This document shows, piece by piece, positions 137 to 19,177 of a stretch of DNA of 19,950 nt. Source of the stretch: a virus. Taxonomy: Duplodnaviria; Heunggongvirae; Uroviricota; Caudoviricetes. Numbering within the stretch: the first letter of the stretch is position 1; the number at the start of each line of letters is the position of its first letter. The stretch lies in the IMG/VR virus record IMGVR_UViG_2778261164_000003; one strand, written 5' to 3'. The notes below the pieces were generated by a model that had not been told where the DNA came from, searched no databases, and saw nothing but the letters and a program-made list of their open reading frames with translations. Both the position numbers and the translations under genes were made by a program.

Positions 137-162
137 AGCCTAATAATTTAGGCTTTGGTCTC
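137..162 (-). terminator. Putative intrinsic terminator of the RT operon
   Basis: Perfect hairpin CCAAAGCCTAA-TAAT-TTAGGCTTTGG (11-bp stem). On the minus strand it is followed by AUUUUC; on the plus strand by a T7 run. Confidence 0.5.
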
Positions 163-3586: not shown

Positions 3587-3930
3587 AATACCCTCATTAA
3601 ACTATCCTCTGTACTTTTTATAGCTCTTTCCATCACTTCCCGCAATCGTATCTCCACAACAGCGACCGCTTTATATAGCAATTTTCATAACTTCGATTAC
3701 AGCTCAAAACATGCGGTAACCGTGCCATAGTTATACCATTCAACGCCCTTACGCGGGCAGCCCCGCACGCCTGCCCGCTTCGCTTAACAGACTGGTTTTC
3801 ATGCATGCCATAAATCGTCTCAGATACCACCACACAAAGGTTTTCGCCTCAAAAAGGGTGCATAAGACTCATGCATTTTCATGCGCCATAGACATGCACT
3901 CATACGCTCTCAGGCCAGCCAGGGAAAAGG

Positions 3931-3960
3931 TGTTAAAAATCCCGGTACTCGACCGGGATT
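3931..3960 (-). terminator. Intrinsic terminator ending the satellite late operon
   Basis: Hairpin AATCCCGGT-ACTCG-ACCGGGATT. On the minus strand it is followed by UUUUUAACA, directly after the Ogr/Delta stop at 3981. Confidence 0.55.
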
Positions 3961-3980
3961 ACGTGGGCGTTTTTTTCTAA

Positions 3981-4253
3981 TCAGACAGGAATCTGCTGAC
4001 GGCTTGACAGTTTTGACGCGGAGCCATAGCGATTGAGCGTTTGCTGTTGTTTTACCGGGGGTTGTGATTTGTCTGGTTCCTGTTCATTGCGCCGGGGTTT
4101 CATGATTATCTTATCCACACTCTCCAGTGCCGTAAATGTGCAGGAACATTCCAGATTCTGGCACTGATACCACGAGCGTTTAACTGACGGAGCTTCATAG
4201 GCTGCTGTTCTGGCGTGTGCAACTGTACCGCATTCCGGACATTTAAGTGCCAT
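3981..4253 (-). CDS. Ogr/Delta-family zinc-finger late-gene transcriptional activator
   Basis: MALKCPECGTVAHARTAAYEAPSVKRSWYQCQNLECSCTFTALESV matches the P2 Ogr C-x2-C...C-x4-C zinc-finger pattern (CPLCQHAAHART...HQCQNVNCSATF). Track start 4262 is GTG; ATG at 4253 has an AGGAG Shine-Dalgarno. Confidence 0.85.
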   Translation of the reverse strand: MALKCPECGTVAHARTAAYEAPSVKRSWYQCQNLECSCTFTALESVDKIIMKPRRNEQEPDKSQPPVKQQQTLNRYGSASKLSSRQQIPV

Positions 4254-4258
4254 TAATA

Positions 4259-4810
4259 TCACTCCTGTATATCGTTAATGTCATTCAGGCGTTGCTGAAA
4301 ACGCAGATGTTGTGCCGGGGTGTAAGAACCCTGGCAATCACGAATCATCCCGGGGTCAGGCATCAAACCGGATTCATCCAGGATCTCACGATAATCCCCA
4401 GCAATTTCAGGCGGTGTTATTGCCAGCTGGCGAACCAGAGCACTGCGTAATATACGGGACGCAACGTCAACCCCTCCGCGCCCCTTCAGGAACGGAGCCA
4501 GTGCAGATGTCAGGGCTGCCCCATTCGCCTGCATAAAATTGCTGAGAGCGGCTTCTGTGCAGGCCTCCATCAGTAAATGCTGCGAGTAAATGCATTCGCG
4601 CGCAGCACAGTTAATTTGCCATTTCAGCACATCCAGACGTTCCCGCAGTAATTCGAGCTGTCGGGCATAATCTGCTGGTTTTTCTGTGGCAGCGAGGAGA
4701 GATGTTATCTGTTGTTCAACGGCTTTTCGGCTCTCATTATGTCCGGCCCACAGAATGCGGGCATTCCGAAAACTGGTAAGTGCCTGGTCAGGCGTGCCTC
4801 GGGCCGTCAT
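4259..4810 (-). CDS. psu: Psu-like protein (polarity suppression / capsid decoration), 183 aa
   Basis: Blocks LDVLKWQINCAAREC, NFMQANGAALTSALAPFL and FTPAQ resemble P4 Psu as recalled from memory. ATGA start/stop overlap with the upstream gene. Confidence 0.6.
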   Translation of the reverse strand: MTARGTPDQALTSFRNARILWAGHNESRKAVEQQITSLLAATEKPADYARQLELLRERLDVLKWQINCAARECIYSQHLLMEACTEAALSNFMQANGAALTSALAPFLKGRGGVDVASRILRSALVRQLAITPPEIAGDYREILDESGLMPDPGMIRDCQGSYTPAQHLRFQQRLNDINDIQE

Positions 4811-5550
4811 ACTGCTTTCTCCTTCTCAGCAAGTTCCTGACGAACCTTAATTTTATGCATAGCTGCCGGAGAGAGTTGATTACTGAAATCCAGACGCGCC
4901 GCATAATCCGGGGCAACTCCCGCCAGTTTAAACACCGGGTCCTGCTCAGGCATCGCATCGTTAGCCAGAGCCGGTCTGGTGATATGTTTATGAATAAAGT
5001 CTTTCAGCACTGTGTCCGGGTCATTAACTGAATTCACCACACCCACAACGGCACTGGCTTCCCGGCCCATTGTGGATTTAAGCAGGCTCAGCGTCTGAAT
5101 AAGCGCTTTTCCATGCGACTGCATAAAATCCTCCCAGATTTGTTTTGCGCGAATATCCACAAGAATGTTATGCGCGTGGATATACTTTCCGGCTAATTCT
5201 GCAGCTTTCTGCGGCAAAAGTGCATTTTCGCTTTCCTGAGCCGCCAGCAGCTCATCAAAATCCTCAAGCGTTTCTCGTCCCAGCGCAATTTCCGTGCGCA
5301 GTTTTTTCATTTCCTTTGAGACCACGCCCTGACTTTCACGAAACAGCGTGCGCCACTCCTCATTCAGTGTGTTCGTCGTGGCTTCCATTTCAGCGCGACG
5401 CTGGCGGATTGTCGCAATATTATCCGCTGCCGCTTTCTGCTGACGACGTGCTTCAAGCCATGCGTTTCTGGCTGTGTTCATGGTTTCCAGTGCCCGCTGC
5501 GTTACAGCCGGAAAAGTGGAAAGGTTGTTATTTACTGCGGTATTGTTCAT
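4807..5550 (-). CDS. Sid-like external capsid scaffold protein (Psu paralogue), 247 aa
   Basis: Psu-like blocks (AWLEARRQQ, IWEDFMQSHGKALIQTLSLL) in a 247-aa protein, close to P4 Sid length. Position upstream of psu. AGGAGA Shine-Dalgarno before ATG at 5550. Confidence 0.45.
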   Translation of the reverse strand: MNNTAVNNNLSTFPAVTQRALETMNTARNAWLEARRQQKAAADNIATIRQRRAEMEATTNTLNEEWRTLFRESQGVVSKEMKKLRTEIALGRETLEDFDELLAAQESENALLPQKAAELAGKYIHAHNILVDIRAKQIWEDFMQSHGKALIQTLSLLKSTMGREASAVVGVVNSVNDPDTVLKDFIHKHITRPALANDAMPEQDPVFKLAGVAPDYAARLDFSNQLSPAAMHKIKVRQELAEKEKAV

Positions 5551-5584
5551 GACTTCTCCTGTCGGGTTGGTTCGTTACGTCAAT

Positions 5585-5640
5585 TGTGTCGTGGCTGACA
5601 CAAGCACACTATCGGTGTTCAGTGTGTGGTGGCTGGCACA
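5585..5640 (-). promoter_or_regulatory. Two TGT-N12-ACA dyads (5585..5602 and 5623..5640): candidate Ogr/Delta-activated late promoter
   Basis: TGTgtcgtggctgacACA and TGTgtggtggctggcACA lie 38 bp apart, 35-90 bp upstream of the Sid-like start. P2/P4 late promoters carry a TGT-N12-ACA activator site. Confidence 0.45.
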
Positions 5641-5728
5641 ACGGGCGCTTGCGGTTATTCAGACGTGGCTATGAAAGCCAGCCAGATAAAAATGCCCTCT
5701 GTTTCAGTCTGCTTTATGTCCCTGATGC

Positions 5729-5916
5729 GGTGGAACAGGTGAAACATGTGTTACAGCTTTGTTTTATAAGACATTTATATACACTGCACCGGTGGAACAT
5801 CGCGGGTAACAAGGTGGAACAGCGGATTGGCTGGCGTTACATCTGTTCCACCTCACTATTTCAGAAGGTGGAACAGGTTCAGCCCTGTAAAATACGGTTG
5901 TTCCACCTGTTTCACC
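5729..5916. repeat. Iteron cluster, candidate replication origin (P4 ori/crr-like)
   Basis: Eight copies of GGTGGAACA or its complement TGTTCCACC (with GGTGAAACA variants) at 5729, 5738, 5791, 5813, 5844, 5867, 5899 and 5908, in both orientations. Resembles the P4 type I iteron TGTTCACC bound by alpha protein. Lies immediately 3' of the primase gene. Confidence 0.55.
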
Positions 5917-5950
5917 TGTTACCCTTAATAAATAAGACTCACGCAAAGCC

Positions 5951-8623
5951 TTAACCCGGCACCTCGCTGTTGAAGACATAGAGCCTGCGGGGATTCATCT
6001 CTGGCGGGCGAATGGTTGTCTGGTGTTTGCCATCAGTGGAGGGCAGCAGGTATCCACGATCTGCGCACAGACGCGCCACCTTGCGCGGGTCAAATCCCCT
6101 GCAGATTTCTTTCCAGCCGGACGGCATGACATAGAACGTAGTGACAGCTTCCGTGCCCTGCGCGGTACTGCCTTTCTCCACCCTGCGCCAGCCCACCATA
6201 TTGCCGGGGCGGTTGCGCTCGTCATACCAGTCTGCAAAGCGGCTGTACTGATTCGCGGTGAAGAAACTGCGAACCTGCTCCAGTGCGGCGATATCTTCCT
6301 GATTGGCGGTGTGCCCGCGATCTTTCAGCCATGCGTTCAGGCAGACGCGGGTTGCCCGCAGTGCTTCACCCTCAGGCCAGCCGGTGATACCCAGACGGGT
6401 TGCCAGTTCACCTGCCATCGCCACCAGAGCAAAGCGGTTCACAGCCCGGCCCACCTGATTGCCTGCATCTTTCGGAGTCAGGGCGGCAGCATATTCCTTC
6501 ATCAGCGATTTTGCCTGTGCCGTTAGTCCGTTAAGATCAGCGGTCAGTGCTTTCAGCCACTCCCGGAACGGCGAACCGTAGTAGCAGGACGTGGCCCATT
6601 CAAGATGCTCTGCCAGAGCCTTGCCGCTGTCGAAGCCGTGCAGCTCCTCAAAAACGCCAAACTTCCCGGAATCGCTGGGGATCTGGATCATCCTGACTTC
6701 CATCCCGGCAAAAGTACGCTCACCGGCCTTTGCCGCATGTTCGGTCAGAGACAACTCGCCAGTTGAAAAGAACAACAGGCGCCACTGCTTACGGGTACGC
6801 AGCTCACCGTCCGTACCGGCACGGCCCTTGCCCTGACCGTTTGCCAGCATGTAGGCGATATTGCCTGCCTCGCGTCCGTCAACTTCCCGGATCTCATCAA
6901 GCATCATGGCGGCATCGTTGCGGCGGCTGGCGCATCCCTCCAGCGCGTTGCCGGTGGCCCGCCATGTCTGCCAGTAGTCAGGCCCGCCGCAGACGGAGGT
7001 TGCCGCTTTCATGGTGGTGGTCTTACCGTCTGTCGATTCCCCTTTGAGGTGGTAGCCGCCGCCGTCCATACCAACCAGCCGTAACAGTGGTGCAGCAAAG
7101 GCCAGGCTGACAGCAAATGCCACGCGGGAGTTGCCGGTACAGTAGCGGGATACATGCTCCCGCCATTCCTCTGTTGTGCCCGACACGCGGAAATCACGCC
7201 CCTGCACGGAAGTGGTCTGGAGAATGACACCCTCTGCACCTTCACCGCTGACCTCATCCTGCAGGACGTAAACCTGACCATGCCAGCCAGTACGACTGAC
7301 GCAGGTCACGCGGCGTTCCGGTTTACACAGTGAGATATATTCCATCAGGCGTGCGCGTGCCTCACCGGTGGTGCTGATATAAGACAGCCCGTTAACCAGC
7401 AGTACCCGGCGCAGTTCCTCACCACTGCCGCTCAGCATTTCCATCGGCATCGCCCAGCGGCGACACTCACCCCACGTATCTTCCCATTCCAGCAGTCGTC
7501 CGAAGTTACCGCCATCGGCATCGCAGGTGATTGCCGTCACGCGCAGCGGGCTGCATATTTTGACGTTCTGGATCTCCGTCTCACCGTTGCGCTGTACCTG
7601 CTTTTCATACCAGAGATATTCCTGGGTAAGACGGAACCCGTGCGGCAGTTGCGTGCGGCCTTCCCCGCACAGTACCAGACCGTTGCGAAAGGCTTCACGG
7701 GCACGGGTAATACCGTGCTCCCGATGAAAGTCATTCCAGTCAGCCTTAATCTCTCCTGGTGGCAGCGTCATCCAGCCGCCAACAGCTTTTGCCGCCCGTT
7801 CAGCAAAGGCTCTGCCGGGATTCTCACCTCCGTCCTGAAAATCGTTATCACCGGCGATGATAATTTTTACCTCAGGCCAGCGTGCCCGCAGCGACTGCGC
7901 CACATTGGGCAGGTTGCCCGCAGATATGGCAGCCACTACGCATCCGGCAGTGAGCTGACTTACCGTCAGCGCCGTAGCGTAACCTTCGGTAATCACCACC
8001 TGTACCGGTGGTTCAGACGGTAACGGGCTGAGCGACACAAACGCGCCTTTCATCGTGCTGCCGGGCAGTATGCTTTTTTCACCCGTCGGGGCGATAAGCT
8101 GTGCACCAGTCACGGCTCCGGTGTTGGTCGTGAGTGGTAACAGCAGGGAACCGGCAGGAAAATCCTTACCGCTGATATGCTGCACGCTTCCGGTCAGAGA
8201 GGCCGGGTATCCGGCGAACCCTTTTCCTGTCAGATAGGCGCTTTCTCCCGTGTGGCTCTCTTTCATCAGCGCCGCCACGGTAAGACCCATGTCGCGTTTA
8301 GGGGCTTTTTGTCTGGCAGGCTTAACAGGCAGTTCCTGCACATCCGGCACATTAAGCACCTGCGCCACCTCCTGCGCAGCCTTTCTGATGCTGTAACCGG
8401 TTACGAGCTTAACCAGATCCAGACCGTCACCATTGCCACACTGGCTGCAGATCCACGTCCCGCGCCCGTCAAGGTCATCAAGGCGAAAACGATCCTTGCC
8501 CCCACATTTCGGGCAGGGACCGTGCCTGCCGTTTTCAGGTACATCAATACGCAGCATCTGGAGAATAACGGGCCATTTCCCCCGTGCAGCGGCTGAAATC
8601 TGCGTAACCGTCTGTATTGTCAT
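5951..8623 (-). CDS. P4 alpha-type bifunctional primase-helicase, 890 aa
   Basis: N-terminal zinc-binding CPKCGGKDRF...CSQCGNGDG, Toprim IIIAGDNDF, P-loop GESTDGKTT. GGGGGA Shine-Dalgarno before the ATG. Confidence 0.85.
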   Translation of the reverse strand: MTIQTVTQISAAARGKWPVILQMLRIDVPENGRHGPCPKCGGKDRFRLDDLDGRGTWICSQCGNGDGLDLVKLVTGYSIRKAAQEVAQVLNVPDVQELPVKPARQKAPKRDMGLTVAALMKESHTGESAYLTGKGFAGYPASLTGSVQHISGKDFPAGSLLLPLTTNTGAVTGAQLIAPTGEKSILPGSTMKGAFVSLSPLPSEPPVQVVITEGYATALTVSQLTAGCVVAAISAGNLPNVAQSLRARWPEVKIIIAGDNDFQDGGENPGRAFAERAAKAVGGWMTLPPGEIKADWNDFHREHGITRAREAFRNGLVLCGEGRTQLPHGFRLTQEYLWYEKQVQRNGETEIQNVKICSPLRVTAITCDADGGNFGRLLEWEDTWGECRRWAMPMEMLSGSGEELRRVLLVNGLSYISTTGEARARLMEYISLCKPERRVTCVSRTGWHGQVYVLQDEVSGEGAEGVILQTTSVQGRDFRVSGTTEEWREHVSRYCTGNSRVAFAVSLAFAAPLLRLVGMDGGGYHLKGESTDGKTTTMKAATSVCGGPDYWQTWRATGNALEGCASRRNDAAMMLDEIREVDGREAGNIAYMLANGQGKGRAGTDGELRTRKQWRLLFFSTGELSLTEHAAKAGERTFAGMEVRMIQIPSDSGKFGVFEELHGFDSGKALAEHLEWATSCYYGSPFREWLKALTADLNGLTAQAKSLMKEYAAALTPKDAGNQVGRAVNRFALVAMAGELATRLGITGWPEGEALRATRVCLNAWLKDRGHTANQEDIAALEQVRSFFTANQYSRFADWYDERNRPGNMVGWRRVEKGSTAQGTEAVTTFYVMPSGWKEICRGFDPRKVARLCADRGYLLPSTDGKHQTTIRPPEMNPRRLYVFNSEVPG

Positions 8624-9003
8624 ACTTCCCCCTGATACAACGTCACACCGGTACTGCAGAAGTCATCAAAGGCCGCCGGAAGCGTGCGGTACATCTCCGC
8701 CATCACTTCACAGCCGCGCGCGGTCAGTACCGGCGGCGCGGTCAGCAGTGACGGCTCCAGCATGTCAGTCAGCAGTGCCAGCGCGGCAGCGGCGCCCTGT
8801 GCTTCGCCGTACTCGTTAATCAGTACGCACTCGATATGCAGCGCAATGGCCATTTCAATACGCTCCACCGTCAGGCTGTGCGGACCATACTGATCACTGC
8901 CAGTTTCGTTCAGCATTTTCTGCCGCCATGCTGAAGCAATAGCCCGCCGGTAAAGCGCGGTGGTCATTTCTGCCGGGAAAATGGAAACCTGCGGCTGGTT
9001 CAT
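8620..9003 (-). CDS. Hypothetical protein, 127 aa, translationally coupled to primase
   Basis: ATGA overlaps at both ends (9003/9000 and 8623/8620). No motif recognised. Confidence 0.5.
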   Translation of the reverse strand: MNQPQVSIFPAEMTTALYRRAIASAWRQKMLNETGSDQYGPHSLTVERIEMAIALHIECVLINEYGEAQGAAAALALLTDMLEPSLLTAPPVLTARGCEVMAEMYRTLPAAFDDFCSTGVTLYQGEV

Positions 9004-9284
9004 CTGGCACCTCCTTCAATCAGTGCGCAGCTGTGTGCAATATCCGTCAAATCTGCCAGCAGGTACTCCATCAGCGCGGCGACACCATGCGCACAGCCAG
9101 TGTCCAGTGCTCCGGCCTGAGACGGGTATTCAGAAAAGAGAAGCTGGAGCATGTCGCAGGCATTTCTTGCGCGGGTCAGCTTTCCGAAACTGTCCTCTGA
9201 CAACCCATAGGCAAAAACACCGGTATTGTGTTTTTCAGGCAAAGTGTGGCCCTGAGCACCGTTGTGCCCGTTTGAAATATTCAT
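9000..9284 (-). CDS. Hypothetical protein, 94 aa
   Basis: ATG start, operon position, ATGA overlap with the downstream ORF. Confidence 0.45.
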   Translation of the reverse strand: MNISNGHNGAQGHTLPEKHNTGVFAYGLSEDSFGKLTRARNACDMLQLLFSEYPSQAGALDTGCAHGVAALMEYLLADLTDIAHSCALIEGGAR

Positions 9285-9315
9285 CGTGGATTACTCCGTT
9301 TTCAGCGGTATTGTG

Positions 9316-9675
9316 TCAGAGAAACTTTGAATAGTGACCGTCATCAGGCTCAGCAGAACGCCATATGCTACGCTCCCGCCAGCGGATAAATAGCACAGAC
9401 GGATGCAGTGTCAGCGGGCCGGAACCACTACCGCCTGCAGGAGCTGGTGCAGGCTTAAAGAGCGGTACATCAAACAGGCGCGTATATCGCTGTTCAAACC
9501 ATGCCAGAGGGCAGGAAGAAAGCTGGTTGTCGCTGTCATGACGTATCAGCACTTCACAGCTGAATTCAGGATTAACCAGCGCCACAGAGGGCGAGGCTTC
9601 TATTAATCGGATAATCGTGACCGTCCAGCCACGTTCATGCTGCCAGCGTTCGCCGGGATGCGGATAATTACGCAT
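9316..9675 (-). CDS. Hypothetical protein, about 119 aa
   Basis: Track start 9705 is TTG. The first ATG (9675, MRNYPHPG) overlaps the stop of the small upstream ORF (ATGCGTAA). Confidence 0.4.
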   Translation of the reverse strand: MRNYPHPGERWQHERGWTVTIIRLIEASPSVALVNPEFSCEVLIRHDSDNQLSSCPLAWFEQRYTRLFDVPLFKPAPAPAGGSGSGPLTLHPSVLFIRWRERSIWRSAEPDDGHYSKFL

Positions 9676-9844
9676 GTTCACCTCCGCAGGGAATGCGCCC
9701 GGCAAAGCTCAGTACATAGTCCGGGGCAAGTCTGCGCCGCGCTGACCGCTCGTTATCTGCGGTGATCCTTAACATCACAGGACGGGCATTGCGTTGACTG
9801 CGGTTGATCGCCGCAAATAACCAGGTACACTTCTGTTTAGCCAT
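9668..9844 (-). CDS. Small hypothetical protein, 58 aa (below the ORF-track cutoff)
   Basis: MAKQKCTWLFAAINRSQRNARPVMLRITADNERSARRRLAPDYVLSFAGRIPCGGEHA. Its stop overlaps the next gene's start. Confidence 0.35.
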   Translation of the reverse strand: MAKQKCTWLFAAINRSQRNARPVMLRITADNERSARRRLAPDYVLSFAGRIPCGGEHA

Positions 9845-9933
9845 CTTCGTTACCTCTTATAACGGTTGGTTAAATGCCCGATTTGTGTTCCCGCACAATC
9901 GGGCATTGCTTTTACAAGCGAACTATACTTACA

Positions 9934-9977
9934 ATGGTAATTACCATGTAGTCATCATATTCTAGGGTAATTACCAT
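9934..9977. promoter_or_regulatory. Twin palindromic operators ATGGTAATTACCAT / GGGTAATTACCAT
   Basis: The perfect palindrome GGTAATTACC occurs twice (9936..9945 and 9966..9975), 30 bp centre to centre. The second copy overlaps the ATG of the Arc-like gene. Confidence 0.5.
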
Positions 9978-10149
9978 GTCAACACCACAAGAGAAACGTT
10001 CTCCACCATTCCAAATGCGTCTTACCGACGATTTTAGGTTGCAACTCGAAAACGAAATGCGCAAAGATGGAGATAGCGCGTTGGCAACTTGGATTAAAAG
10101 AATTTTACGCAAAGAACTCCAATCACGCGGGATTGACCCTAAAGGCTAA
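9976..10149 (+). CDS. Arc/MetJ-type ribbon-helix-helix DNA-binding protein, 57 aa (absent from the ORF track)
   Basis: MSTPQEKRSPPFQMRLTDDFRLQLENEMRKDGDSALATWIKRILRKELQSRGIDPKG. The FQMRL...ENGrS-like beta-strand/helix pattern is typical of Arc-like repressors. Confidence 0.6.
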   Translation: MSTPQEKRSPPFQMRLTDDFRLQLENEMRKDGDSALATWIKRILRKELQSRGIDPKG

Positions 10150-10181
10150 TCAGTTAAATATTACTAACTATCAATTAAGGC

Positions 10182-10472
10182 TTAGGGAGTAGGTGATAAT
10201 CTATTCCCTTTATTAATTGCTCTTGCCTTATTTCTCATCCCCTCAAACTGTTGACCTGAGTTTTCTTCAAACCCATCTCGCCACTTATAATAATCAGCAG
10301 CGCGCCATCGTGACATCCGACCTATTTTTATAGGTTTTGGAAAGCGATTCAGAGAAATCAATCGATAAATCCATTTATCACTTAATAAACAATCGGAAGT
10401 AATAAACTTCATATCGATCAGAGAATCCATTGAAGGTCGTTGCAAAGTAGTATTATCATGTTTAGATAACAT
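10182..10472 (-). CDS. AlpA-family phage regulatory protein (HTH, excisionase-like), 96 aa
   Basis: YRLISLNRFPKPIKIGRMSRWRAADYYKW fits the AlpA signature (FPKPIKIG-R...W). GGAGAA Shine-Dalgarno before the ATG. Confidence 0.55.
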   Translation of the reverse strand: MLSKHDNTTLQRPSMDSLIDMKFITSDCLLSDKWIYRLISLNRFPKPIKIGRMSRWRAADYYKWRDGFEENSGQQFEGMRNKARAINKGNRLSPTP

Positions 10473-10597
10473 TCATCATTCTCCGTTTATCTAAGTCTAT
10501 TGGCTTCAACACGGAAAATTAAAACATAGGTTATAAATGAGAAAAATGTGACTAATGAAAAAAATTCAAAATCATTAGCCACAACAATTGTTAATAT

Positions 10598-11422
10598 TTA
10601 GTTAAACTTAATGTTTTTCATGCAACTACGTAGCAAACTAACAACAGTATCATAGCTCAAAGGCGGTTCTCCGGTCTTAGGCCAGAACTCACTGGCATGT
10701 TGAAAAAGATAATCAGCTATCGCTGCTGGACTCTCTCTTCTTAGCCTCATATCACGATGATAGAGCGAAATAATAGCCATGAGTATTTCAGCTCGAGGAA
10801 CAGCATGTTTTTGTTTTTGCGCCTCAGATTGTGATTTATATTTATTGGCGTTTTTTATCCGCTTTTGTTCGCATAAGACTATATCAATGAATTTTTGAAT
10901 CTGTACCTTTGTAATCCACAAAACCTCAAAAAGATAATAATTTTCTTTTTCATCATAATTTACATAAAGAATTACCTTACAATTTATATTAGGCGTACCC
11001 GCCAGTAGAAAATGAATAGGCCAGGAATCCGGTTGCCCCTCATGCTTAACTAACAGATCTTTATATTCATAATCAACAGCCCATAAACCGGATATGAAGC
11101 ATCGAATAAAACCATTTTTATCAATTAAATTATCTTCATCAGGGATTCTTATAGAACTTAAGTCTGACAACATAATATTGCCATTTCTATCTCGTGGTAA
11201 ATATTTCAGATTAGATAAGAACTCATCTATTTGACCATCAATCTTCAAACCACATGAAACATCATACTCATCATCATGGAATTCCATGCATAGCTCTACA
11301 TCTCGTTCTCTGGCAAACCAGAGTATATCCTTTTCACTACAACCAATTTTTTCTGAAGCTTCATCCAACTGGTAGTAATCTCTGAGCAGAGAATCAGTAT
11401 TATTAATTTTTAAAATATTCAT
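10598..11422 (-). CDS. Hypothetical protein, 274 aa, AT-rich cargo gene coupled to the integrase
   Basis: Its ATG overlaps the integrase stop (ATGA). Composition is strongly AT-rich relative to neighbours. No catalytic motif recognised. Confidence 0.6.
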   Translation of the reverse strand: MNILKINNTDSLLRDYYQLDEASEKIGCSEKDILWFARERDVELCMEFHDDEYDVSCGLKIDGQIDEFLSNLKYLPRDRNGNIMLSDLSSIRIPDEDNLIDKNGFIRCFISGLWAVDYEYKDLLVKHEGQPDSWPIHFLLAGTPNINCKVILYVNYDEKENYYLFEVLWITKVQIQKFIDIVLCEQKRIKNANKYKSQSEAQKQKHAVPRAEILMAIISLYHRDMRLRRESPAAIADYLFQHASEFWPKTGEPPLSYDTVVSLLRSCMKNIKFN

Positions 11423-12609
11423 TTATGAGTACCAATTTGCTCAGATAAATAATTAGCATACCATTGCATCATTTCTCTTCTCCCTTCGAGATATTGGGCA
11501 TGGTTATAAATTCCACGAATAGAGTTTTTGTCCGAATGAGCAAGCTGGGTTTCAATCCAAGCGCTGTTAAATCCTTTCTCATGTAGGATTGTACTCATCG
11601 TATGCCTGAAACCATGCCCCGTAACACGCCCTGCATATCCAATACGTTTAAACACCTGATTAATGCTTGCTTCACTCATAAATTTGCTGGGATCGTTGCG
11701 TCCAGGGAACATCAGCGGGTAGTTCCCAGTTAGTTCTTTCAAACTTTTGAGATGGGATAATGCTTGTTTTGACAACGGGACAATATGGCTCCTACGCATT
11801 TTCATACGTTCTTTTGGGATCTCCCACACCGCATTATCAAAATCCACCTCTCGCCACTCACCTGCTCGTAGTTCTCCAGTTCGTAGACCTGTCAGGATAA
11901 GTAAATGCGCCCCCAACAATACAATTGGACTTCCTGAATAAGAATTAAGGGCATTAAAGAACTCCGGTAGTTCGTTGGCTTTGAGGAATGGATAGTGGAC
12001 TGCTTCATGTCCTTGCATCGCACTGGCAAGATCCGGTGCCGGATTGTAGATTGCCCTACCCGTTACGATGGCATAGCGAAAAACTTCACCGCATCGCTGA
12101 CGGACTTTCTTCGCTTTCTCCATAGCGCCTCGAGCTTCTATCAACCTCAGAACTTCAAGCAGTTCAAGGGGCTGAATATCAGCTATAGGTCTGTGCCCAA
12201 TATGCGGGAAAATGTCTTTCTCGAATGCCTCAATGATGTCGGAAGCATAGCCCTCAGACCATTTGGGTGATTTCATTTTGTGCCACTCTAACGCCACTTC
12301 TCTGAATGGGTTAAGTGTCTCACTCGCTGCATTTAAAGCCTGCTTTTTGGCTTTTTTGACTTCGCCGGGATCTTCACCTGCTGCGAGTAGTTTCTTCGCG
12401 TCTTCTCGTTTTTGTCTGGCATCAGCAAGTGTGACTGTTGGATAAACACCAAAGGACAATCGTTTCTCTTTACCAGCAAAACGGTATTTCATACGCCAGT
12501 AACGCGAGCCATTAGGTTCGACCTGAAGGTATAGGCCACCTCCATCAAACAGCTTGTAGCTCTTCTCTTTTCCTTTCGCAGCTTCAACCTTGCGGGCATT
12601 CAGCATCAT
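11419..12609 (-). CDS. int: P4-type tyrosine integrase
   Basis: N-terminal KLFDGGGLYLQV...YWRMKYRF arm-binding region and C-terminal catalytic HGFRHT...RGIYNHAQY. Track start 12678 is TTG; tandem ATG ATG at 12609 with AGGAAA upstream. Confidence 0.9.
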   Translation of the reverse strand: MMLNARKVEAAKGKEKSYKLFDGGGLYLQVEPNGSRYWRMKYRFAGKEKRLSFGVYPTVTLADARQKREDAKKLLAAGEDPGEVKKAKKQALNAASETLNPFREVALEWHKMKSPKWSEGYASDIIEAFEKDIFPHIGHRPIADIQPLELLEVLRLIEARGAMEKAKKVRQRCGEVFRYAIVTGRAIYNPAPDLASAMQGHEAVHYPFLKANELPEFFNALNSYSGSPIVLLGAHLLILTGLRTGELRAGEWREVDFDNAVWEIPKERMKMRRSHIVPLSKQALSHLKSLKELTGNYPLMFPGRNDPSKFMSEASINQVFKRIGYAGRVTGHGFRHTMSTILHEKGFNSAWIETQLAHSDKNSIRGIYNHAQYLEGRREMMQWYANYLSEQIGTHK

Positions 12610-12685
12610 TGGGGGCACATTTCCTAGACCGAACAGAACATGCCCCTGATTGTGCCCCCAACCGCGTGTTGATTTCAAGAGACAA

Positions 12686-13234: not shown

Positions 13235-14929
13235 CTAATTGGTCTCTATAATTGAGCTTAATTCGTTAATGAGCAGGTGAGGGCTCATTTGAGTTAAGTC
13301 ATACTGCCTCCCCAATTTCTCTTGCATTCCTCCTCGTATTTTCTTTAATAAATATTTGCCTTTAATGTTATTAACTGATGTCGGAACTTGGTTTCCAAAT
13401 AATGTTAGGTGTCGAGGGCATGCTTCCAGTCTCCCCTTATATAAATTATATTTAATCACCTCTCTTTTGGATTGAAAATCAGACTGGATGACAACATGAT
13501 TTTGTGCGGCTATATCAGTAATCCATGTTTGTATATCTTGCACAGAAGAGCCTGTAACATGAGATAAATGCTCTATTCTGGTAAAATAACTCTCAATATC
13601 ACTACCTTCAGTAATGAATGGAATGGCGCCACCTCTTTGAATTTCTGCTTTTACTATATCTACTTCTTCATCAGTCATAAAATCGCGGTCACGATGAATT
13701 ATAACCTTGCAATTAGGGGACATTTCCTTAAGAAGGTCAGCAGATACAATTGCTCCTTGCACATTTGTGCATGTTTTGTAGCTATAGACTGCAGTTCTCT
13801 CCATATCAAAACCATTATATTGTAAAAGGGCCTTGAAATATTTTTTATCTCTATCTTCAGTGAGAAATATATTCTCCACAACCCCTTCAGTTACTCTATC
13901 CAAGTCATTTAAAGCTCCTAAATCTAAGAACATTGATATTTTGTCCAAATCCATGCCTTGATTCTGAACATTACCATCTTTCATCCAAATAAAATTTGCC
14001 TCTCCATACAATGAATCAATTATATGTTTGCTATGAGTGGAAAGTATAACTTGAGTTTCTGATTTGTTATTTTCTGATATTAAACTCAATGAGTCAGTGA
14101 GAATATATTGATTATCAGGGTGAAGATGAGAATCCGGTTCATCTAAGAGTAATAATTTAGGTTTGAAATATACTATATATGCAAATATCTGTAATGTTTG
14201 AAGTAATCCAGTTCCCGCCAACTCGATAGGGTAATTTTTCCCACTTGCATTTTCTTTAAAATTAACGGTTAGATAAGTATCTTTATCCTCTTTGAAATCC
14301 ACTTCGATTTCTATATCTGGAAATACAACTTGCAGCATGCTATTGAGATTTACCAAGTGGTTATCTTTGTTCAGATAGTATATGACATTCCTTAAGTATA
14401 AATTTGCATCACCACTTGCCACTCCTCTTCTAACTATTGCTGGCGATTTTAATTCTTCCTTCTGTGAGATACCAGCCAGACCAGGAACATATATACTAAA
14501 GAGATTTTTTTCATCGGTGATTACTGAACCGAAGCCGGTATAATCACCGGTTCTTTCACATGACATATTTCCATGATTTCGTCCCTTAGATATAATTATA
14601 TTGTATTCTAATTGTCGACCAACAAGATCATCATATCCAAAAAGACTCAACACACTTTGATTGCCAGGCGACCTCGAATTCTTATAAGGTTCGCCGTTCT
14701 TTAAAACAGTGAAGTCTGGGGTGATATTATACATTAAAAGTTCAGTAGAGAATGTTTGTTGACTTTGTTGCCGAGCGGCAATAGCTGCGCATACTGAAAA
14801 ATGTATAGCTTGCAGAATACTGCTCTTACCTGAACTATTTGCCCCTACTAATACATTTATATCACTAAGGGTGATTTCTGCTGTGTCAATTTTTTTGAAT
14901 TTACTAACAGACAAAGACTTAATGAACAT
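13235..14929 (-). CDS. OLD-family ATP-dependent nuclease (ABC-type ATPase plus Toprim), standalone class-1 type like phage P2 Old
   Basis: Walker A LVGANSSGKSS, Walker B/H-loop LLLLDEPDSHLHPDNQ and LSTHS; C-terminal Toprim-like NIFLTEDRD and VIIHRDRDF. Length comparable to P2 Old and GajA. No UvrD-like partner follows. Track start 14947 is TTG; ATG at 14929 has an AAGGAA Shine-Dalgarno. Confidence 0.7.
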   Translation of the reverse strand: MFIKSLSVSKFKKIDTAEITLSDINVLVGANSSGKSSILQAIHFSVCAAIAARQQSQQTFSTELLMYNITPDFTVLKNGEPYKNSRSPGNQSVLSLFGYDDLVGRQLEYNIIISKGRNHGNMSCERTGDYTGFGSVITDEKNLFSIYVPGLAGISQKEELKSPAIVRRGVASGDANLYLRNVIYYLNKDNHLVNLNSMLQVVFPDIEIEVDFKEDKDTYLTVNFKENASGKNYPIELAGTGLLQTLQIFAYIVYFKPKLLLLDEPDSHLHPDNQYILTDSLSLISENNKSETQVILSTHSKHIIDSLYGEANFIWMKDGNVQNQGMDLDKISMFLDLGALNDLDRVTEGVVENIFLTEDRDKKYFKALLQYNGFDMERTAVYSYKTCTNVQGAIVSADLLKEMSPNCKVIIHRDRDFMTDEEVDIVKAEIQRGGAIPFITEGSDIESYFTRIEHLSHVTGSSVQDIQTWITDIAAQNHVVIQSDFQSKREVIKYNLYKGRLEACPRHLTLFGNQVPTSVNNIKGKYLLKKIRGGMQEKLGRQYDLTQMSPHLLINELSSIIETN

Positions 14930-14976
14930 TTTCTTTTCCTTTTTCAATGAAAGGTGTAAAACTTTAACTCATCATT

Positions 14977-15261
14977 TTAGTTGTTAACATTCAAAATCAT
15001 AAACTGATTCTCTATTTTACCAATGAATAGCAGTCCTATCAGAGTAAAAATAGTGTTAGATATTTTTCTTACATCTGAATCTGAGAAATATTCGGATTCT
15101 TTATAGCAATTATTCCATATGTCGAGTTCTCTAAAATCATAAGCTAAATGAGCAATTTTTCCCCAATCTTCATTTACTATATGCTCAGCCATTGTAAAAA
15201 AATCACTCTTAGTCGGAATGTCTATTCTCATTGTTACTTGGCCTATTTTTTCATTGCTCAC
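14977..15261 (-). CDS. Possible small ORF upstream of the OLD nuclease (doubtful)
   Basis: 94 codons from a GTG. No convincing Shine-Dalgarno at the GTG or at either internal ATG. May instead be the 5' UTR of the OLD gene. Confidence 0.2.
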   Translation of the reverse strand: MSNEKIGQVTMRIDIPTKSDFFTMAEHIVNEDWGKIAHLAYDFRELDIWNNCYKESEYFSDSDVRKISNTIFTLIGLLFIGKIENQFMILNVNN

Positions 15262-15458
15262 ATATATAACTATATGATATTTATATTAAAACTCCAACAT
15301 TAAGTTTCGGCTTTCTTCAAGTAAACTACATAGCACGATGTAAGCAACTTCCGCTTTTGGCACATAGCAGTCCTAGAGATACTGGCGTAAAGCCATGGAG
15401 GATCGGTGGGAGGAGGTAAAAATCCTCTCATGCAAAAAATACGCAAAATCGATAACAG

Positions 15459-15541
15459 TTGGAAATCATTCAATACTCGCACTATCGGAAGTTCACCAGC
15501 CAACCGCAGCACGTTCTTGCATACGACATGCCTGCGGTTTC
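15459..15541 (+). repeat. Hairpin-containing repeat, copy A
   Basis: About 83 bp, roughly 87% identical to copy B. Contains CCGCAGCACG-loop-(C)ATGCCTGCGG followed by TTT. Confidence 0.7.
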
Positions 15542-15684
15542 AACTCCCGCCAGCTCCACCAATCATGATTGGACGGTTAAGGACAACACCAATAAAAACA
15601 GGAAGTTAGCAGTCTCAGCAGGACACCGACCAGACGGTGAGGAGACAAAAAAGGATACGCAAAGGAGCCGCGGCTCCCGAGTGA

Positions 15685-15720
15685 CAAAAAAGCCCGCTTA
15701 TGCGGGCTTTTTTGTTTTTT
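15685..15720. terminator. Bidirectional intrinsic terminator after the Bro-N gene
   Basis: AAAAAAGCCCGC-TTAT-GCGGGCTTTTTTGTTTTTT: GC stem flanked by an A-run and a T-run. Confidence 0.7.
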
Positions 15721-15730
15721 TCCCTCAAGC

Positions 15731-16492
15731 TCACTGACGTGTTCTTGCCTCAACTACTTTCTGGTATATAGCGATAGCTTCATCAACCAAAGCTAATGGA
15801 TAGCAAGAATTTATATTCAATCCGGAGGGGCACTTAATTCTTTCTGCTCCACGTTCACTACGCAATTTTTCACACCATTGCCAAAGTTCCTCAACTGAAT
15901 AGGTATCCAAACCTAACTCCATCAATCGTTGAGGAACACTTCTGAACTGAGACAAATCTCTTAAACTTTCTAACGAGTTAACTTTTAGTTCAACTTGGTT
16001 TACTCTACTTTCTAACTCTTCACGTTTTTCTATTTCCATTACCAATGCTTGAACCGTCTGCTGCAGACTGTTAGCAAAAGCACTCAGTTCTGAACGTTCT
16101 TGTTTAGGTGGCGGAGGATATACACCAAATTCACGAATAGACGGAAGGACCTGATGAAAAAGCCAGCGTTGGAATTTTTTCCCCGCAGCAGTAGTATCCT
16201 GAGCAAGTACTCTATATAGACCTGGTTCAGTAAGAAATACCTCAGAGATAGTTTCACCATCCACGACAAGAGAAACATTCCTAAACTCATCTGGATCTAA
16301 AGTTTTTATTACCGCTCTTATTACAGTGAGCAAGCTTTGAGAAGTCTTTCCATCCAGTTTTCTGTTCTCAGCAGAAAGCGTTCTTAGCACATCTGAAAGT
16401 GAAACAAAAATCTGCCCTTTTTCATTCATGCTACGGATATAATTTTCTCCACACTCTCCTTCGTAGCATAATTGTAACAAATTCTTTTGCAC
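15731..16492 (-). CDS. Bro-N domain protein with C-terminal coiled-coil region (antirepressor-like), 253 aa
   Basis: N-terminal YIRSMNEKGQIFVSLSDVLRTL and FQRWLFHQVLPSIREFGVY match the Bro-N pattern. GTG start at 16492 with AGGAGG 5 nt upstream. Confidence 0.6.
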   Translation of the reverse strand: MQKNLLQLCYEGECGENYIRSMNEKGQIFVSLSDVLRTLSAENRKLDGKTSQSLLTVIRAVIKTLDPDEFRNVSLVVDGETISEVFLTEPGLYRVLAQDTTAAGKKFQRWLFHQVLPSIREFGVYPPPPKQERSELSAFANSLQQTVQALVMEIEKREELESRVNQVELKVNSLESLRDLSQFRSVPQRLMELGLDTYSVEELWQWCEKLRSERGAERIKCPSGLNINSCYPLALVDEAIAIYQKVVEARTRQ

Positions 16493-16770
16493 GCCATCCC
16501 CTCCTTTTTTTATGGATTATACATCCTATAAACATGTTGTCACCGAAAGGGAAAAGCATAAACCCAATTTATGTTCCACAAGATGTTCAAAAATCAAACA
16601 ACCATATAGCTGAGGAGCACAAAAGAGCAAAAGTTTACCAACCCCATATATCCATACAGCACATAAAATTGACACTACATGTGGTATTTTTTAAGTTACG
16701 CCTTGCACCATTTCATGATTTTATGTAGATTGTCATCACACGCTGAGATTAAAAAATTCTACAATTTTTG

Positions 16771-16799
16771 TTGATCTTGAGTTTGGTTTTTAGTATAAG
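16771..16799 (+). promoter_or_regulatory. Sigma70-like promoter for the HTH/peptidase operon
   Basis: TTGATC, 17-bp spacer, TATAAG, about 25 bp upstream of the ATG. Confidence 0.4.
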
Positions 16800-16825
16800 T
16801 GAGCATGGATTGTAGGAGGCGCAAC

Positions 16826-17176
16826 ATGGTAACTAGCTTTGGTAAGACTCTCAGAAAAATGAGAATAGACCGGGGTATGGTGCTCAAAAATATGGCTGAT
16901 CTGTTAGGCGTTAGTTCGGCTTACTTATCCGCCATTGAATTAGGCAAAAGAGCTATACCGGACTCATTAGTAAATACGATTGCAACAACTTTTGAGCTTA
17001 GCGGACAAGACATCATCAATCTCAAGAAACAGGCAGAGATTTCTCAACCGTCCATTAAGGTTGATATGTCGGATGCAAATGAGCAGAACAAAGAACTAAT
17101 GCTTGTTTTTGCTCGTAAATTTAAGGACCTGAGTCCAGAGCAACTCGATAAGCTTAATAAAATGTTAAAGGACTGA
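16826..17176 (+). CDS. XRE-family helix-turn-helix transcriptional regulator, 116 aa
   Basis: LKNMADLLGVSSAYLSAIELGKR HTH motif. AGGAGG 7 nt before ATG 16826 (track start 16799 is GTG). Confidence 0.85.
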   Translation: MVTSFGKTLRKMRIDRGMVLKNMADLLGVSSAYLSAIELGKRAIPDSLVNTIATTFELSGQDIINLKKQAEISQPSIKVDMSDANEQNKELMLVFARKFKDLSPEQLDKLNKMLKD

Positions 17177-17179
17177 ATA

Positions 17180-17713
17180 ATGATTGCGAAACGAGAACTT
17201 GGCCATCGCGTTTCACCTCTCAGCACCAGCATGATTAAATCATACGCTCATCGTCTGAGAGACGTTCTTCAGATATCAAATCACACATATCTGAGACTGG
17301 ATGTATTACTAGAAGGTCTTATGGCCTCAGAAAGCATTGAGCTAGAAATTGTTGAAGATCATGAACTGCCCAAACGCTATGCAGTGACTTATCCAGATAA
17401 GAACAAAATTGTTTTACAGCGATCTGTTTACGATGCAGTGTGCAATGGTGAGAACCATGCGAGATTCACTGTTGCGCATGAACTTGGTCATTTAGTCATG
17501 CATCGCAATCAAAGTATCTATGCACGTAATAAGACTAGTGGAGGGCATAAAATCTATGAAGACAGCGAATGGCAAGCAGATGTTTTTGCAAGCCACTTCT
17601 TAATTGACTCAAGACTAGTTTTGCCCACAATGACTGTTGAAGATATAAGCAAAACATTTGGTGTCAGTCAACAAGCGGCTGAAACCTGGATGAGAAAAAA
17701 TGCAAAAAGATAA
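17180..17713 (+). CDS. ImmA/IrrE-family zinc metallopeptidase, 177 aa
   Basis: HEXXH motif in TVAHELGHLVMH. Start lies 4 nt after the HTH stop, with AAAGGA Shine-Dalgarno. Confidence 0.85.
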   Translation: MIAKRELGHRVSPLSTSMIKSYAHRLRDVLQISNHTYLRLDVLLEGLMASESIELEIVEDHELPKRYAVTYPDKNKIVLQRSVYDAVCNGENHARFTVAHELGHLVMHRNQSIYARNKTSGGHKIYEDSEWQADVFASHFLIDSRLVLPTMTVEDISKTFGVSQQAAETWMRKNAKR

Positions 17714-17720
17714 CGAAAAA

Positions 17721-17743
17721 GCCAGCGAACCGCTGTCGCTGGC
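17721..17743 (+). terminator. Weak terminator-like hairpin after the peptidase gene
   Basis: GCCAGCGA-ACCGCTG-TCGCTGGC followed by TTCTCCT (poor T tract). Confidence 0.3.
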
Positions 17744-17838
17744 TTCTCCTATCGTAAGCAAATACGAAAAACTTGGCGGTTGTGAGTATACGCTTACCTT
17801 AGGTTTTGTCAACAGCGAAACTTTACAGGTAACACGAT

Positions 17839-17982
17839 ATGACCATTGAAAAAGCTGTATCTGAGGAATACATCACAATTTACCGTCCTTTTATTACGGT
17901 CAAAGGTAAACGGATCTTTGCTCGTCAAAAAGGCTTGGCAGCCTTTCCTATCAAAATTCCTGCCTCTAAGTATCGAGGATAA
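17839..17982 (+). CDS. Small hypothetical protein, 47 aa (absent from the ORF track)
   Basis: MTIEKAVSEEYITIYRPFITVKGKRIFARQKGLAAFPIKIPASKYRG. AGGTAA 8 nt upstream; followed 15 nt later by a terminator. Confidence 0.35.
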   Translation: MTIEKAVSEEYITIYRPFITVKGKRIFARQKGLAAFPIKIPASKYRG

Positions 17983-17996: not shown

Positions 17997-18021
17997 AGGC
18001 CCTTTTCTAGGGCCTTTTATT
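17997..18021 (+). terminator. Intrinsic terminator after the 47-aa ORF
   Basis: AGGCCC-TTTTCTA-GGGCCT followed by TTTATT. Confidence 0.5.
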
Positions 18022-18133
18022 ACACTTCTGTTACGCGCACCACAGATAGAGTTTCAGCTAAAACTTTTGTTCATACCTAGGAGTCTGCTGACGAGTGGTT
18101 TGTTCACTAATAAACACGTAAAAACGGTAACGG

Positions 18134-18215
18134 CTGGACATCATTCAATATTCGCACTATTGGAAGTTCACCAGCCAGCCACAGCACGTTCTTGCATACA
18201 ACGTGCCTGCGGTTT
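18134..18215 (+). repeat. Hairpin-containing repeat, copy B
   Basis: About 82 bp matching copy A. Hairpin CCACAGCACG-loop-CGTGCCTGCGG followed by TTTTT. Confidence 0.7.

Positions 18216-18307: not shown

Positions 18308-19177
<870 letters not shown>

Follow-up and report, generated by a model that had tools for sequence, protein, structure and literature searches.

We analysed positions 15731-17713, and their surroundings, in a stretch of 19,950 nucleotides from the virus record IMGVR_UViG_2778261164_000003 (Caudoviricetes); the whole stretch is referred to below as the window, and sequence comparison identifies it as Escherichia coli DNA. An earlier note, made from the letters of the window, had described here an XRE-family helix-turn-helix (HTH) regulator gene and an ImmA/IrrE-type (M78) metallopeptidase gene facing a Bro-N protein gene, and had proposed that the pair may gate a neighbouring effector rather than serving as a classical lytic switch. 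We found all three open reading frames (ORFs) where they had been placed, the start of the HTH gene being corrected to 16826, and the divergent layout was also as described, with Bro-N on the minus strand, the pair on the plus strand and a control region of 333 bp between them (16493-16825). The note did not mention that a conserved structured RNA and a small gene, here called sm2, lie downstream of the pair. The features of this unit are listed below.

16713..16729, no strand assigned: weaker operator-like site O2, TCATGATTTTATGTAGA, with two mismatches to the dyad TCWACA-N5-TGTWGA
16757..16775, no strand assigned: candidate operator O1, a 7-5-7 inverted repeat TTCTACA-ATTTT-TGTTGAT that overlaps the -35 hexamer, centred at about -40 from the predicted transcription start
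16771..16799, plus strand: predicted HTH operon promoter, -35 TTGATC (16771-16776), 17-nt spacer, -10 TATAAG (16794-16799)
16826..17176, plus strand: 116-aa HTH regulator of the XRE family; its C-terminal domain is helical
17180..17713, plus strand: short M78 (ImmA/IrrE-type) zinc metallopeptidase, 177 aa, with a short HTH-like tail
17709..17841, plus strand: structured RNA with hairpins P1 (17719-17745), P2 (about 17751-17799) and P3 (17801-17823)
17839..17982, plus strand: sm2, a 47-aa basic protein with a small beta-sheet fold, MTIEKAVSEEYITIYRPFITVKGKRIFARQKGLAAFPIKIPASKYRG; third gene of the cassette and its presumed output
17997..18015, plus strand: terminator-like hairpin ending the HTH-M78-RNA-sm2 unit, a 7-bp GC-rich stem followed by TTTATTAC

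The HTH protein matches the Pfam families HTH_19, HTH_31 and HTH_3 (E 4e-9 to 8e-7). Its true start is ATG 16826, preceded by a Shine-Dalgarno (SD) sequence, GGAGG, at 16815-16819, and not GTG 16799; both the ATG and the SD sequence are invariant in four diverged loci, and the same start is used in RefSeq. The protein matched the PADLOC capH model with an E-value of 6e-11 (41 bits, model positions 2-96 of 103), and its matches in the PDB were C.BclI, ClgR, DdrOC and the N-terminal domain of CapH (7t5u). There was no detectable sequence match between its C-terminal half and any solved chain, and similarity to the C-terminal part of CapH was sought by sequence and not found. The motif F95-A-R97 in the C-terminal domain (residues 95-97 of 116) is invariant in all pair types, reading FAR[KRSM] across pairs that are 32-49% identical.

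The peptidase gene follows after a gap of 3 nt in the same orientation, an order that is kept in all homologous loci. Its product matches Peptidase_M78 (PF06114, E 2.8e-11), and the zinc site, H100-E-L-G-H104 together with E130 (EWQAD), is invariant in eight diverged homologues and aligns with the catalytic core of CapP. The match to the PADLOC capP model (E 5e-15, 54 bits) covers positions 31-146 of 242 only, PADLOC giving no curated cut-off for either capH or capP, and CapP 7t5t, aligned over the catalytic core, is the only sequence match in the PDB. CapP consists of the peptidase, an HTH-like linker and, at its C-terminus, a GAF domain (residues 182-288), with the activating single-stranded DNA (ssDNA) bound in the groove between peptidase and GAF domain, as in IrrE. 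The protein encoded here ends at residue 177 and has no GAF domain; it also has no cysteine-switch residue, Ala being aligned to the switch Cys of 7t5t, although this feature is optional in the family (a cysteine-switch loop is present in about 33% of CapPs). The remaining PADLOC matches of the pair were weak, to PDC-M69A/B and, domain-wise only, to the RosmerTA RmrA models (1.6e-5 and 4e-11), and no RmrT match was found by PADLOC among the neighbouring genes. We found no papers for the RefSeq protein accessions of the locus. The assignment of the pair to the class of ImmR/ImmA, CapH/CapP and DdrO/IrrE was thus borne out by the best or near-best PADLOC matches and by 7t5t, and the finer comparison within that class was divided, the profiles being closest to CapH/CapP and the architecture being that of a short ImmA-type peptidase. 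Judged by its domains, the pair is a short ImmR/ImmA-type switch and not a CapP system, because the GAF domain is absent.

Alignment of several loci revealed one strongly conserved block upstream of the HTH gene, and this is O1, with the consensus TTCwACA-N5-TGTTGAw. It is kept both in loci with Bro-N (the window, the temperate phage LLS and L019) and in loci without it (L050-L053 and L066), forms a perfect palindrome in L053, and is the sole zero-mismatch site in the window. The position and hexamers of the promoter that it overlaps are likewise kept, on reading of the sequences, in LLS, L019 and L050-L053 (TATAAA). At the position of O2 the letters GTAGA are conserved, and L050 and L051 carry a GTAGA-N3-TCTAC palindrome there. 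No copy of the operator was found at the Bro-N promoter by a dyad search or by the multi-locus comparison. Because the sole conserved operator overlaps the operon's own -35 hexamer and none is seen at the Bro-N promoter, we read the HTH protein as regulating at least its own operon. A generic repeat search for operators was uninformative, the operator being found only through the multi-locus comparison; neither at the Bro-N promoter nor upstream of the downstream nuclease gene PD-T4-3 did copies of the operator exceed chance; and a small ORF in the divergent region of LLS (LLS_29) is not conserved in the window.

The spacer of about 130 nt that follows the peptidase gene is more conserved than the genes that flank it. 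It forms three hairpins on folding, and the z-scores in five diverged loci range from -3.2 to -6.7. From six sequences we built a covariance model (R1), which found 14 loci with E-values of 1e-25 to 1e-44, always between the M78 gene and sm2. In the R1 alignment 92.5% of cells pair, compared with 35-42% when the partners are slid, and eight pairs show compensatory changes, a value reached in 0 of 500 shuffles. The loop of P1 (17731-17736, CGCUGU) also pairs with the loop of P3 (17812-17817, ACAGCG); this loop-loop helix is 100% paired in every sequence, and of its six positions two show full compensation (CG/UA 7:6; GC/AU 11:2). Two more distant loci carry UGCUGCC...GGCAGCA at the corresponding loop-loop places, and the Gilliamella P1 is still one register off in the alignment. 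In Rfam there was no family at gathering score for 17709-17841, just a 16-bit chance-level match at E below 10.

RefSeq annotates a 49-aa 'hypothetical protein', sm1 (WP_001519526), over this RNA, at 17700-17849. It belongs to no family in Pfam, NCBIfam, PADLOC or PHROGs and, since Gilliamella has no such frame and LLS, L050 and L051 have only a broken one, sm1 is probably a mis-annotation over a conserved pseudoknotted RNA. The R1 model found nothing convincing in distant sm2 loci, a scan of viral contigs for the RNA pattern gave only the same clade again, and the spacers of distant cassettes fold variably (z +0.7 to -4.0). Weak R1 matches (18-27 bits, E 6e-5 to 0.04) were noted at L132 56-170, L141 41-154 and L129-L131 at about 49-153 (minus strand); sm2-like genes are some 2.3 kb away on the other strand, and these matches may be noise or reflect a distantly related RNA.

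In window-type loci the peptidase gene is followed by a spacer of 110-180 nt and then by sm2 as an ORF of 44-47 aa, and in L050 sm2 is 90% identical where the peptidase is 79% identical. The order HTH-M78-sm2 persists at 32-49% peptidase identity in Gilliamella P2-like prophages, integrase-adjacent loci, a Mu-like phage and metagenome loci, and Bro-N is absent from all of these. The sm2 family comprises 25 database clusters and has neither a name nor a Pfam family; the protein had no match in Pfam, NCBIfam, PADLOC or PHROGs and no similarity to any toxin family. We recovered 39 distinct sm2 variants. A co-directional HTH-M78 pair lies upstream in 11 of them and a divergent WYL-domain (BrxR/CapW-type) regulator in 13; four have a 260-aa protein, seven some other context, and the upstream sequence was too short to classify in the remaining four. 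In the WYL loci a conserved protein of 58-71 aa ('KPYGDG..GAVK..RSQFQTP') often lies between regulator and sm2, and the cargo after sm2 is variable (a TIR protein, TnsA of a Tn7-like end, or a 95-aa protein). Loci with an sm2-like gene (44-47 aa) behind a divergent WYL/BrxR gene are L071, L072, L116, L121, L122, L127, L133, L134, L140, L144 and L147-L153. Since sm2 is found in both contexts, its place, as read from gene order, is that of the first regulated gene behind two unrelated classes of regulator that control defence operons.

The pair lies close to an attachment (att) site. The left edge of the prophage segment that carries it is marked by the following feature.

15534..15562, plus strand: 3' end of ssrA (tmRNA), att junction

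In strain C7 an intact annotated ssrA is followed directly by Bro-N, the pair, two small annotated ORFs, the GIY-YIG gene (PD-T4-3) and then lambdoid tail genes, and in strain MS1657 the same genes terminate a lambdoid prophage at prfC. In LLS, a sequenced temperate phage, the homologues are placed between the tail-fibre/invertase genes and attP; attP and a 'tmRNA pseudogene' adjoin the Bro-N gene, and the integrase and excisionase genes are on the far side of attP. LLS has a separate CI/Cro/CII region as well as a KilAC antirepressor. From these placements and the separate CI/Cro/CII region of LLS, the pair and its neighbours are, by comparative mapping, cargo that lambdoid prophages integrating at ssrA carry in their att-proximal accessory ('b') region, and not the primary immunity switch, and the earlier suggestion that this is no classical lytic switch holds. 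The proteins of the window and LLS are 78% (Bro-N), 84% (HTH) and 80% (peptidase) identical; this exceeds the DNA identity of 75%, and all three proteins are therefore under purifying selection.

The reading that we prefer, and to which we give about an even chance, is that the HTH gene, the short M78 gene, the RNA and sm2 form a self-contained autoregulated cassette that lies between two other, independent morons. It would be ordered as its own promoter with a palindromic operator, XRE repressor, short ImmA-type metallopeptidase, pseudoknotted RNA, sm2 and terminator. HTH dimers would bind the 7-5-7 palindrome over their own -35 hexamer and set expression of the operon; on some cue the peptidase would cut the HTH protein in its C-terminal oligomerisation helix, probably at F95-A-R97, by homology with ImmR/ImmA, CapH/CapP and DdrO/IrrE, and the cut protein would leave the DNA so that the operon is de-repressed. 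Cleavage after Phe in the C-terminal part of the HTH protein is plausible from the comparison with ImmR/ImmA, in which ImmR is reportedly cut at F95/M96, and CapH is cut at F82|R83, an F|R within helix one of the C-terminal dimerisation domain. The activating signal of short ImmA-type peptidases is not understood. Gene order suggests that sm2 is the product that matters, perhaps as an antirepressor-like protein or as an RNA- or DNA-binding alarm protein, and that the structured RNA may tune its synthesis, through read-through at the P1 hairpin or through control of translation. We regard the conserved RNA and sm2 as the likeliest output of the pair, and the output of the switch is probably one that has not been described. 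Bro-N, with its own near-consensus promoter and terminator, and PD-T4-3 (also named CMoRE), with its own upstream region and active alone, would be separate cassettes in a shared prophage hotspot. The gene content, linkage, operator and RNA pairing come from sequence comparison; the mechanisms are inferred, that of repressor cleavage by homology.

ImmR/ImmA of Bacillus ICEBs1 and phi105 shares with this cassette an XRE gene followed in one operon by a gene for a short (about 170 aa) single-domain HEXXH peptidase of the COG2856/M78 group, its carriage on a mobile element, and a repressor expected to autoregulate (Bose et al., 2008). However, the pair described here is not the master switch of its element, LLS having its own CI/Cro, is not linked to int/xis, is found in a Gram-negative host, has a conserved structured RNA and sm2 downstream, and shows no operator at the divergent promoter. 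The logic of repressor plus M78 protease is also that of DdrO/IrrE (PprI) of Deinococcus, and DdrOC is among the PDB matches of the HTH protein; IrrE, in contrast, is a three-domain, chromosomally encoded global regulator that senses ssDNA through its GAF groove, whereas the peptidase here is minimal and phage-borne.

Going one step further, the RNA and sm2 might be an undescribed common output module of bacterial and phage 'alarm' regulators of two unrelated damage- or infection-sensing classes, namely short ImmA-type HTH/M78 pairs and WYL/BrxR-type repressors, in which a small RNA- or protein-binding factor relays de-repression, for example to prophage repressors, to neighbouring defence cargo or to its own pseudoknotted leader; we offer this tentatively and think it more likely wrong than right. 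What the locus has in common with BrxR/CapW is that sm2-like genes lie directly downstream of the divergent WYL gene in 13 of the 39 variants, but there is no WYL protein in the window and the two classes of regulator are unrelated in sequence. Phage TF-smORF modules (Silpe et al., 2023; PMC10432266) also combine an XRE-type phage factor (with the same structural neighbours, C.AhdI, C.BclI and ClgR) with a tiny unannotated protein, at variable accessory positions, as a second sensory input beside CI. Their smORF, however, is divergent, activated by the transcription factor, without a protease and without homologues, whereas sm2 is co-directional, stands behind the peptidase and the RNA element, and belongs to a conserved family. 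Taken together, an RNA with a pseudoknot that is probably wrongly annotated as a protein, and a 47-aa family behind two unrelated classes of defence-island regulator point to a conserved output that has gone unannotated, and if real this would provide a testable handle on the targets of such switches where no obvious effector is attached.

Several points weigh against the preferred reading. O1, centred near -40, occupies the position of class II activators and of dual regulators of the C-protein and lambda CI type, so the HTH protein may activate, and the sign of regulation is not readable from the sequence. The covariation in the RNA comes from two clades and an alignment fitted to the model, the P1 hairpin may end transcription before sm2, and sm2 may have a promoter of its own. 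Pairs from Vibrio (49% identity) and Accumulibacter have no sm2. The adjacency of pair and Bro-N is kept across the whole clade at at least 78% identity and fits the published layout rule for CapH/CapP, and Bro-N may be controlled from a distance or through a degenerate site. Finally, there is an operator-like site at 18330-18346, TCAACACTACTGGTTGT, 58 bp upstream of the PD-T4-3 start codon; it matches the dyad with two mismatches, although about three such matches per window are expected by chance.

The alternative that survives best, which we nevertheless consider unlikely, is a CapH/CapP-style switch of the divergent Bro-N gene, whereby the HTH protein represses the Bro-N promoter and cleavage frees Bro-N to act as an antirepressor or DNA-binding effector in prophage induction or phage exclusion. 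The features concerned are as follows.

15683..15716, no strand assigned: bidirectional intrinsic terminator (15-bp stem and T-run) that separates the 3' end of Bro-N from the ssrA end
15731..16492, minus strand: Bro-N protein, 253 aa, passing the Pfam Bro-N threshold; read as an independent moron-type cassette
16516..16543, minus strand: predicted Bro-N promoter, -35 GTGACA (16543-16538), 16-nt spacer, -10 TATAAT (16521-16516), 11 of 12 positions as in the consensus

In CapH/CapP (Lau et al., 2022; Calloji et al., 2026) the immune operon under repression has the pair upstream of it on the other strand, and the divergent layout here is that published arrangement and also that of ImmR. These proteins give the best HMM matches and the only PDB sequence match, the HTH protein likewise has a C-terminal helical domain with a conserved F-x-R near the F82|R83 site of CapH, and both lie in a defence-rich region beside a defence gene. 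Xre-Bro pairs are moreover a recurrent association that was catalogued in 2009 together with Xre-COG2856 operons (Makarova, Wolf & Koonin; PMC2701414), and the locus resembles that catalogue both in its phage-borne HTH + COG2856 operon and in having the HTH gene beside a Bro protein. The Bro-N protein matches the PHROG 'anti-repressor Ant' families, its adjacency to the pair is kept in LLS, L019/L020 and L095 at 75-90% DNA identity, and so strong a promoter would need restraint if its product were harmful.

The comparison of loci nevertheless argues for Bro-N as a separate cassette. Orthologues that are 66-100% identical occur across Enterobacterales and stand last before att or int in 28 prophage contigs, and every one has upstream of it an ATGACA-N16/17-TATAAT core, an A-run and a GGGG ribosome-binding site, whether the pair is present or not. 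Only the promoter hexamers are conserved at this place among the window, LLS and L019. The pair of the window type accompanies only the closest Bro-N relatives, one locus (L021) having a second pair type co-directional with Bro-N; at 16 Bro-N loci, with the same promoter and without the HTH gene or a nearby LexA box, the upstream genes are instead dinI-like, impC/umuD'-like, umuC-like, hicB or an acyltransferase gene. Conversely, window-type pairs that are 76-85% identical occur without Bro-N: L050 and L051 have theirs at an icd att end, L052 beside an integrase and L053 within a nin-like region. In loci of this kind the pair's operator is kept, whereas nothing operator-like lies at or near the Bro-N promoter. 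The protein itself has neither the KilA-C/ANT domain of characterised antirepressors nor an enzymatic domain, and no Pfam or NCBIfam match past residue 125; the remainder is a 42-residue coiled coil and a helical C-terminal domain of about 65 residues for which no informative fold match was found, and PADLOC gave no match. The locus also differs from CapH/CapP in that the peptidase has no GAF domain to form the ssDNA groove and no cysteine-switch residue, the divergent gene encodes Bro-N and not a recognised immune operon, and the adjacent PD-T4-3 is evolutionarily independent, downstream, co-directional and behind a terminator. The proposed gating of Bro-N by the pair is therefore weak: the divergent layout fits the CapH/CapP rule, and the promoter kept without the pair, the pair without Bro-N and the operator at the pair's own promoter do not bear it out.

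LexA control of Bro-N was considered and rejected, as the 400 bp upstream of it hold no CTG-N10-CAG box in the window, LLS or L019, and the boxes in L023 and L025 belong to dinI. We also noted that in many prophages the Bro-N -35 hexamer, CCCCATGACA, lies inside a reverse-oriented 3' half of tRNA-Pro(CGG), TGGTCGGCACGAGAGGATTTGAACCTCCGACCCCCGACACCCCATGACA, about 70 bp upstream of Bro-N (L022-L025, L029, L031, L033, L035, L036 and L038); in these the promoter seems to have arisen out of an attachment-site relic. The fragment is absent from the window and from LLS.

Less probable still is a toxin-antitoxin-like or abortive-infection module, as in the three-component Xre-COG2856 systems predicted by Makarova et al. 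(2009), with sm2 or the peptidase as the toxic component and the HTH protein as antitoxin or repressor, stabilising the prophage or killing infected cells. Besides that prediction, in which a third component of Xre-COG2856 operons was postulated, it draws on the PADLOC matches to PDC-M69A/B and RmrA, on the movement of the cassette among accessory sites of many phages, as is seen for toxin-antitoxin and defence genes, and on sm2 being small, basic and better conserved than the peptidase. However, sm2 is unlike any toxin family searched, and instead of a RelE, PIN or RmrT toxin the third component is a 47-aa protein whose family has no name and which follows a structured RNA. There is no RmrT-like gene, and RmrA of RosmerTA is a fused HTH-M78 protein of about 380 aa (range about 370-400 aa) with RmrT adjacent, whereas the genes here are split. 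The occurrence of sm2-like genes alone, or under WYL repressors before other cargo, is more in keeping with a regulator or adaptor than with a dedicated toxin.

We find it very improbable that the pair gates PD-T4-3, through read-through from the HTH operon or HTH binding upstream, as a damage- or infection-inducible restriction system. The features of this neighbour are listed below.

18109..18215, no strand assigned: dinI-like fragment D1-B, a repeat of 15434-15540; seam between the HTH cassette and the PD-T4-3 unit
18404..19177, plus strand: PD-T4-3/CMoRE, GIY-YIG nuclease, PADLOC 2.7e-140 over positions 1-255 of 256, Pfam LEM-3 GIY-YIG; a neighbour and not part of the switch

The gene is co-directional and 420 bp downstream of sm2, and WYL loci, too, have sm2-like genes preceding variable defence cargo. 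We searched 5426 complete E. coli genomes. PD-T4-3 is present in 839 of them and any match to the Bro-N/HTH/M78 stretch in 36 (0.7%); the stretch is complete in 34 genomes, of which 31 have PD-T4-3 following in this order and three do not. A second, unrelated HTH/M78 pair is divergent from PD-T4-3 in four genomes. The 31 linked cases are all more than 99% identical to one another, which indicates one ancestral arrangement, and in some 800 genomes PD-T4-3 has the same sequence upstream of it but no pair. Where PD-T4-3 occurs alone, the sequence in common with the window begins only at about 18073-18112 (the dinI fragment), and at the O157:H7 PD-T4-3 loci neither pair type was found. The enzyme, since renamed CMoRE, is a type IV restriction endonuclease of one component that acts specifically on 5hmC/5ghmC DNA; cloned from APEC O1, O157:H7 and Klebsiella, it is active alone with its native promoter in heterologous hosts (PMC12923530). 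It is also active in a native host, and the authors of that study suspected its repression there (bioRxiv 10.1101/2024.12.20.629700). The dyad at 18330-18346 would suit HTH binding, but stands at chance level. Given the 839 genomes against 36, the sequence shared from the dinI fragment onward, the pairless O157:H7 loci and the terminator-like hairpin between the units, PD-T4-3 is, as far as comparative genomics can tell, a cassette independent of the pair, and gating of it by the pair is not supported.

A decaying remnant of an old immunity region with no present function is scarcely credible: ends of elements are patched together at the locus (dinI fragments, ssrA fragment), some strains have IS insertions and the pair is in just 0.7% of E. 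coli genomes, but all ORFs are intact, protein identity exceeds DNA identity in the comparison with LLS, a viable phage, and operator, SD sequence, catalytic motifs and RNA pairings are all conserved.

For the self-contained cassette that we prefer, one consequence concerns annotation. HTH + M78 pairs are annotated wholesale as CapH/CapP-like regulators of the nearest defence gene, and adjacency alone is unsafe for this purpose, because the pair, Bro-N and PD-T4-3 are three separately travelling cassettes and the short peptidase has no ssDNA-sensing domain.

Other HTH/M78 pairs were seen at related positions. The second pair type, 32-41% identical and without sm2, is divergent from PD-T4-3 across the dinI fragment in E. 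coli WP5-S17-ESBL-11 (L005 6813-9104). The distant pairs of Vibrio (L007 3701-5998) and Accumulibacter (L008 5645-9345) are also at prophage tail ends; the former adjoins a dinI-like gene and a DNA methyltransferase gene and the latter genes for what look like a TIR-like protein and an SRA/HNH nuclease; apart from dinI-like, these labels were given by reading the sequences and not by profile search.

The module is bracketed by a direct repeat of 107 nt (15434-15540 and 18109-18215, 87% identity), which matches dinI-like genes or regions of lambdoid and Stx phages in more than 170 phage records; related copies are found in about 4600-5250 of the 5426 E. coli genomes. Its interpretation as an ssrA/att duplication was rejected, as neither ARAGORN nor Rfam found a tmRNA, ssrA is confined to 15534-15562 and the repeat is dinI-like. 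No complete tmRNA was found in the window by these two programs. The terminator at 15683..15716 gave partial Rfam matches of leader/terminator type on both strands.

The pair had also been said to sit between two nuclease genes. This is true of the right-hand neighbour, the GIY-YIG nuclease PD-T4-3, but the left-hand gene (13235-14947) encodes a 570-aa AAA_15/AAA_21 ATPase, with NsnB and AriA as best PADLOC matches, in which profile searches detected no nuclease domain, and it belongs to a different mobile element, since it lies beyond the ssrA att fragment at 15534-15562. The last 250 or so residues of the ATPase had no match in Pfam, NCBIfam, PADLOC or PHROGs, and FLTEDRD, HRDRDF and TEGSDIE, which are motifs rich in D/E, may point to a Toprim/DUF4435-like domain. 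A 94-aa ORF beside it (region 13235-15261) belongs to no family in the same four collections. Further to the left of the ssrA fragment is a P4-like satellite (300-12678), where the GC content swings from 27% to 60% and whose hotspot holds a DRT type 3 defence system.

300-2318: Drt3b, DRT type 3 defence system
2309-3586: Drt3a, DRT type 3 defence system
3981-4262: satellite Delta
4259-4810: satellite Psu
4807-5550: satellite Sid-like protein
5951-8623: satellite alpha primase-helicase
11419-12678: satellite integrase

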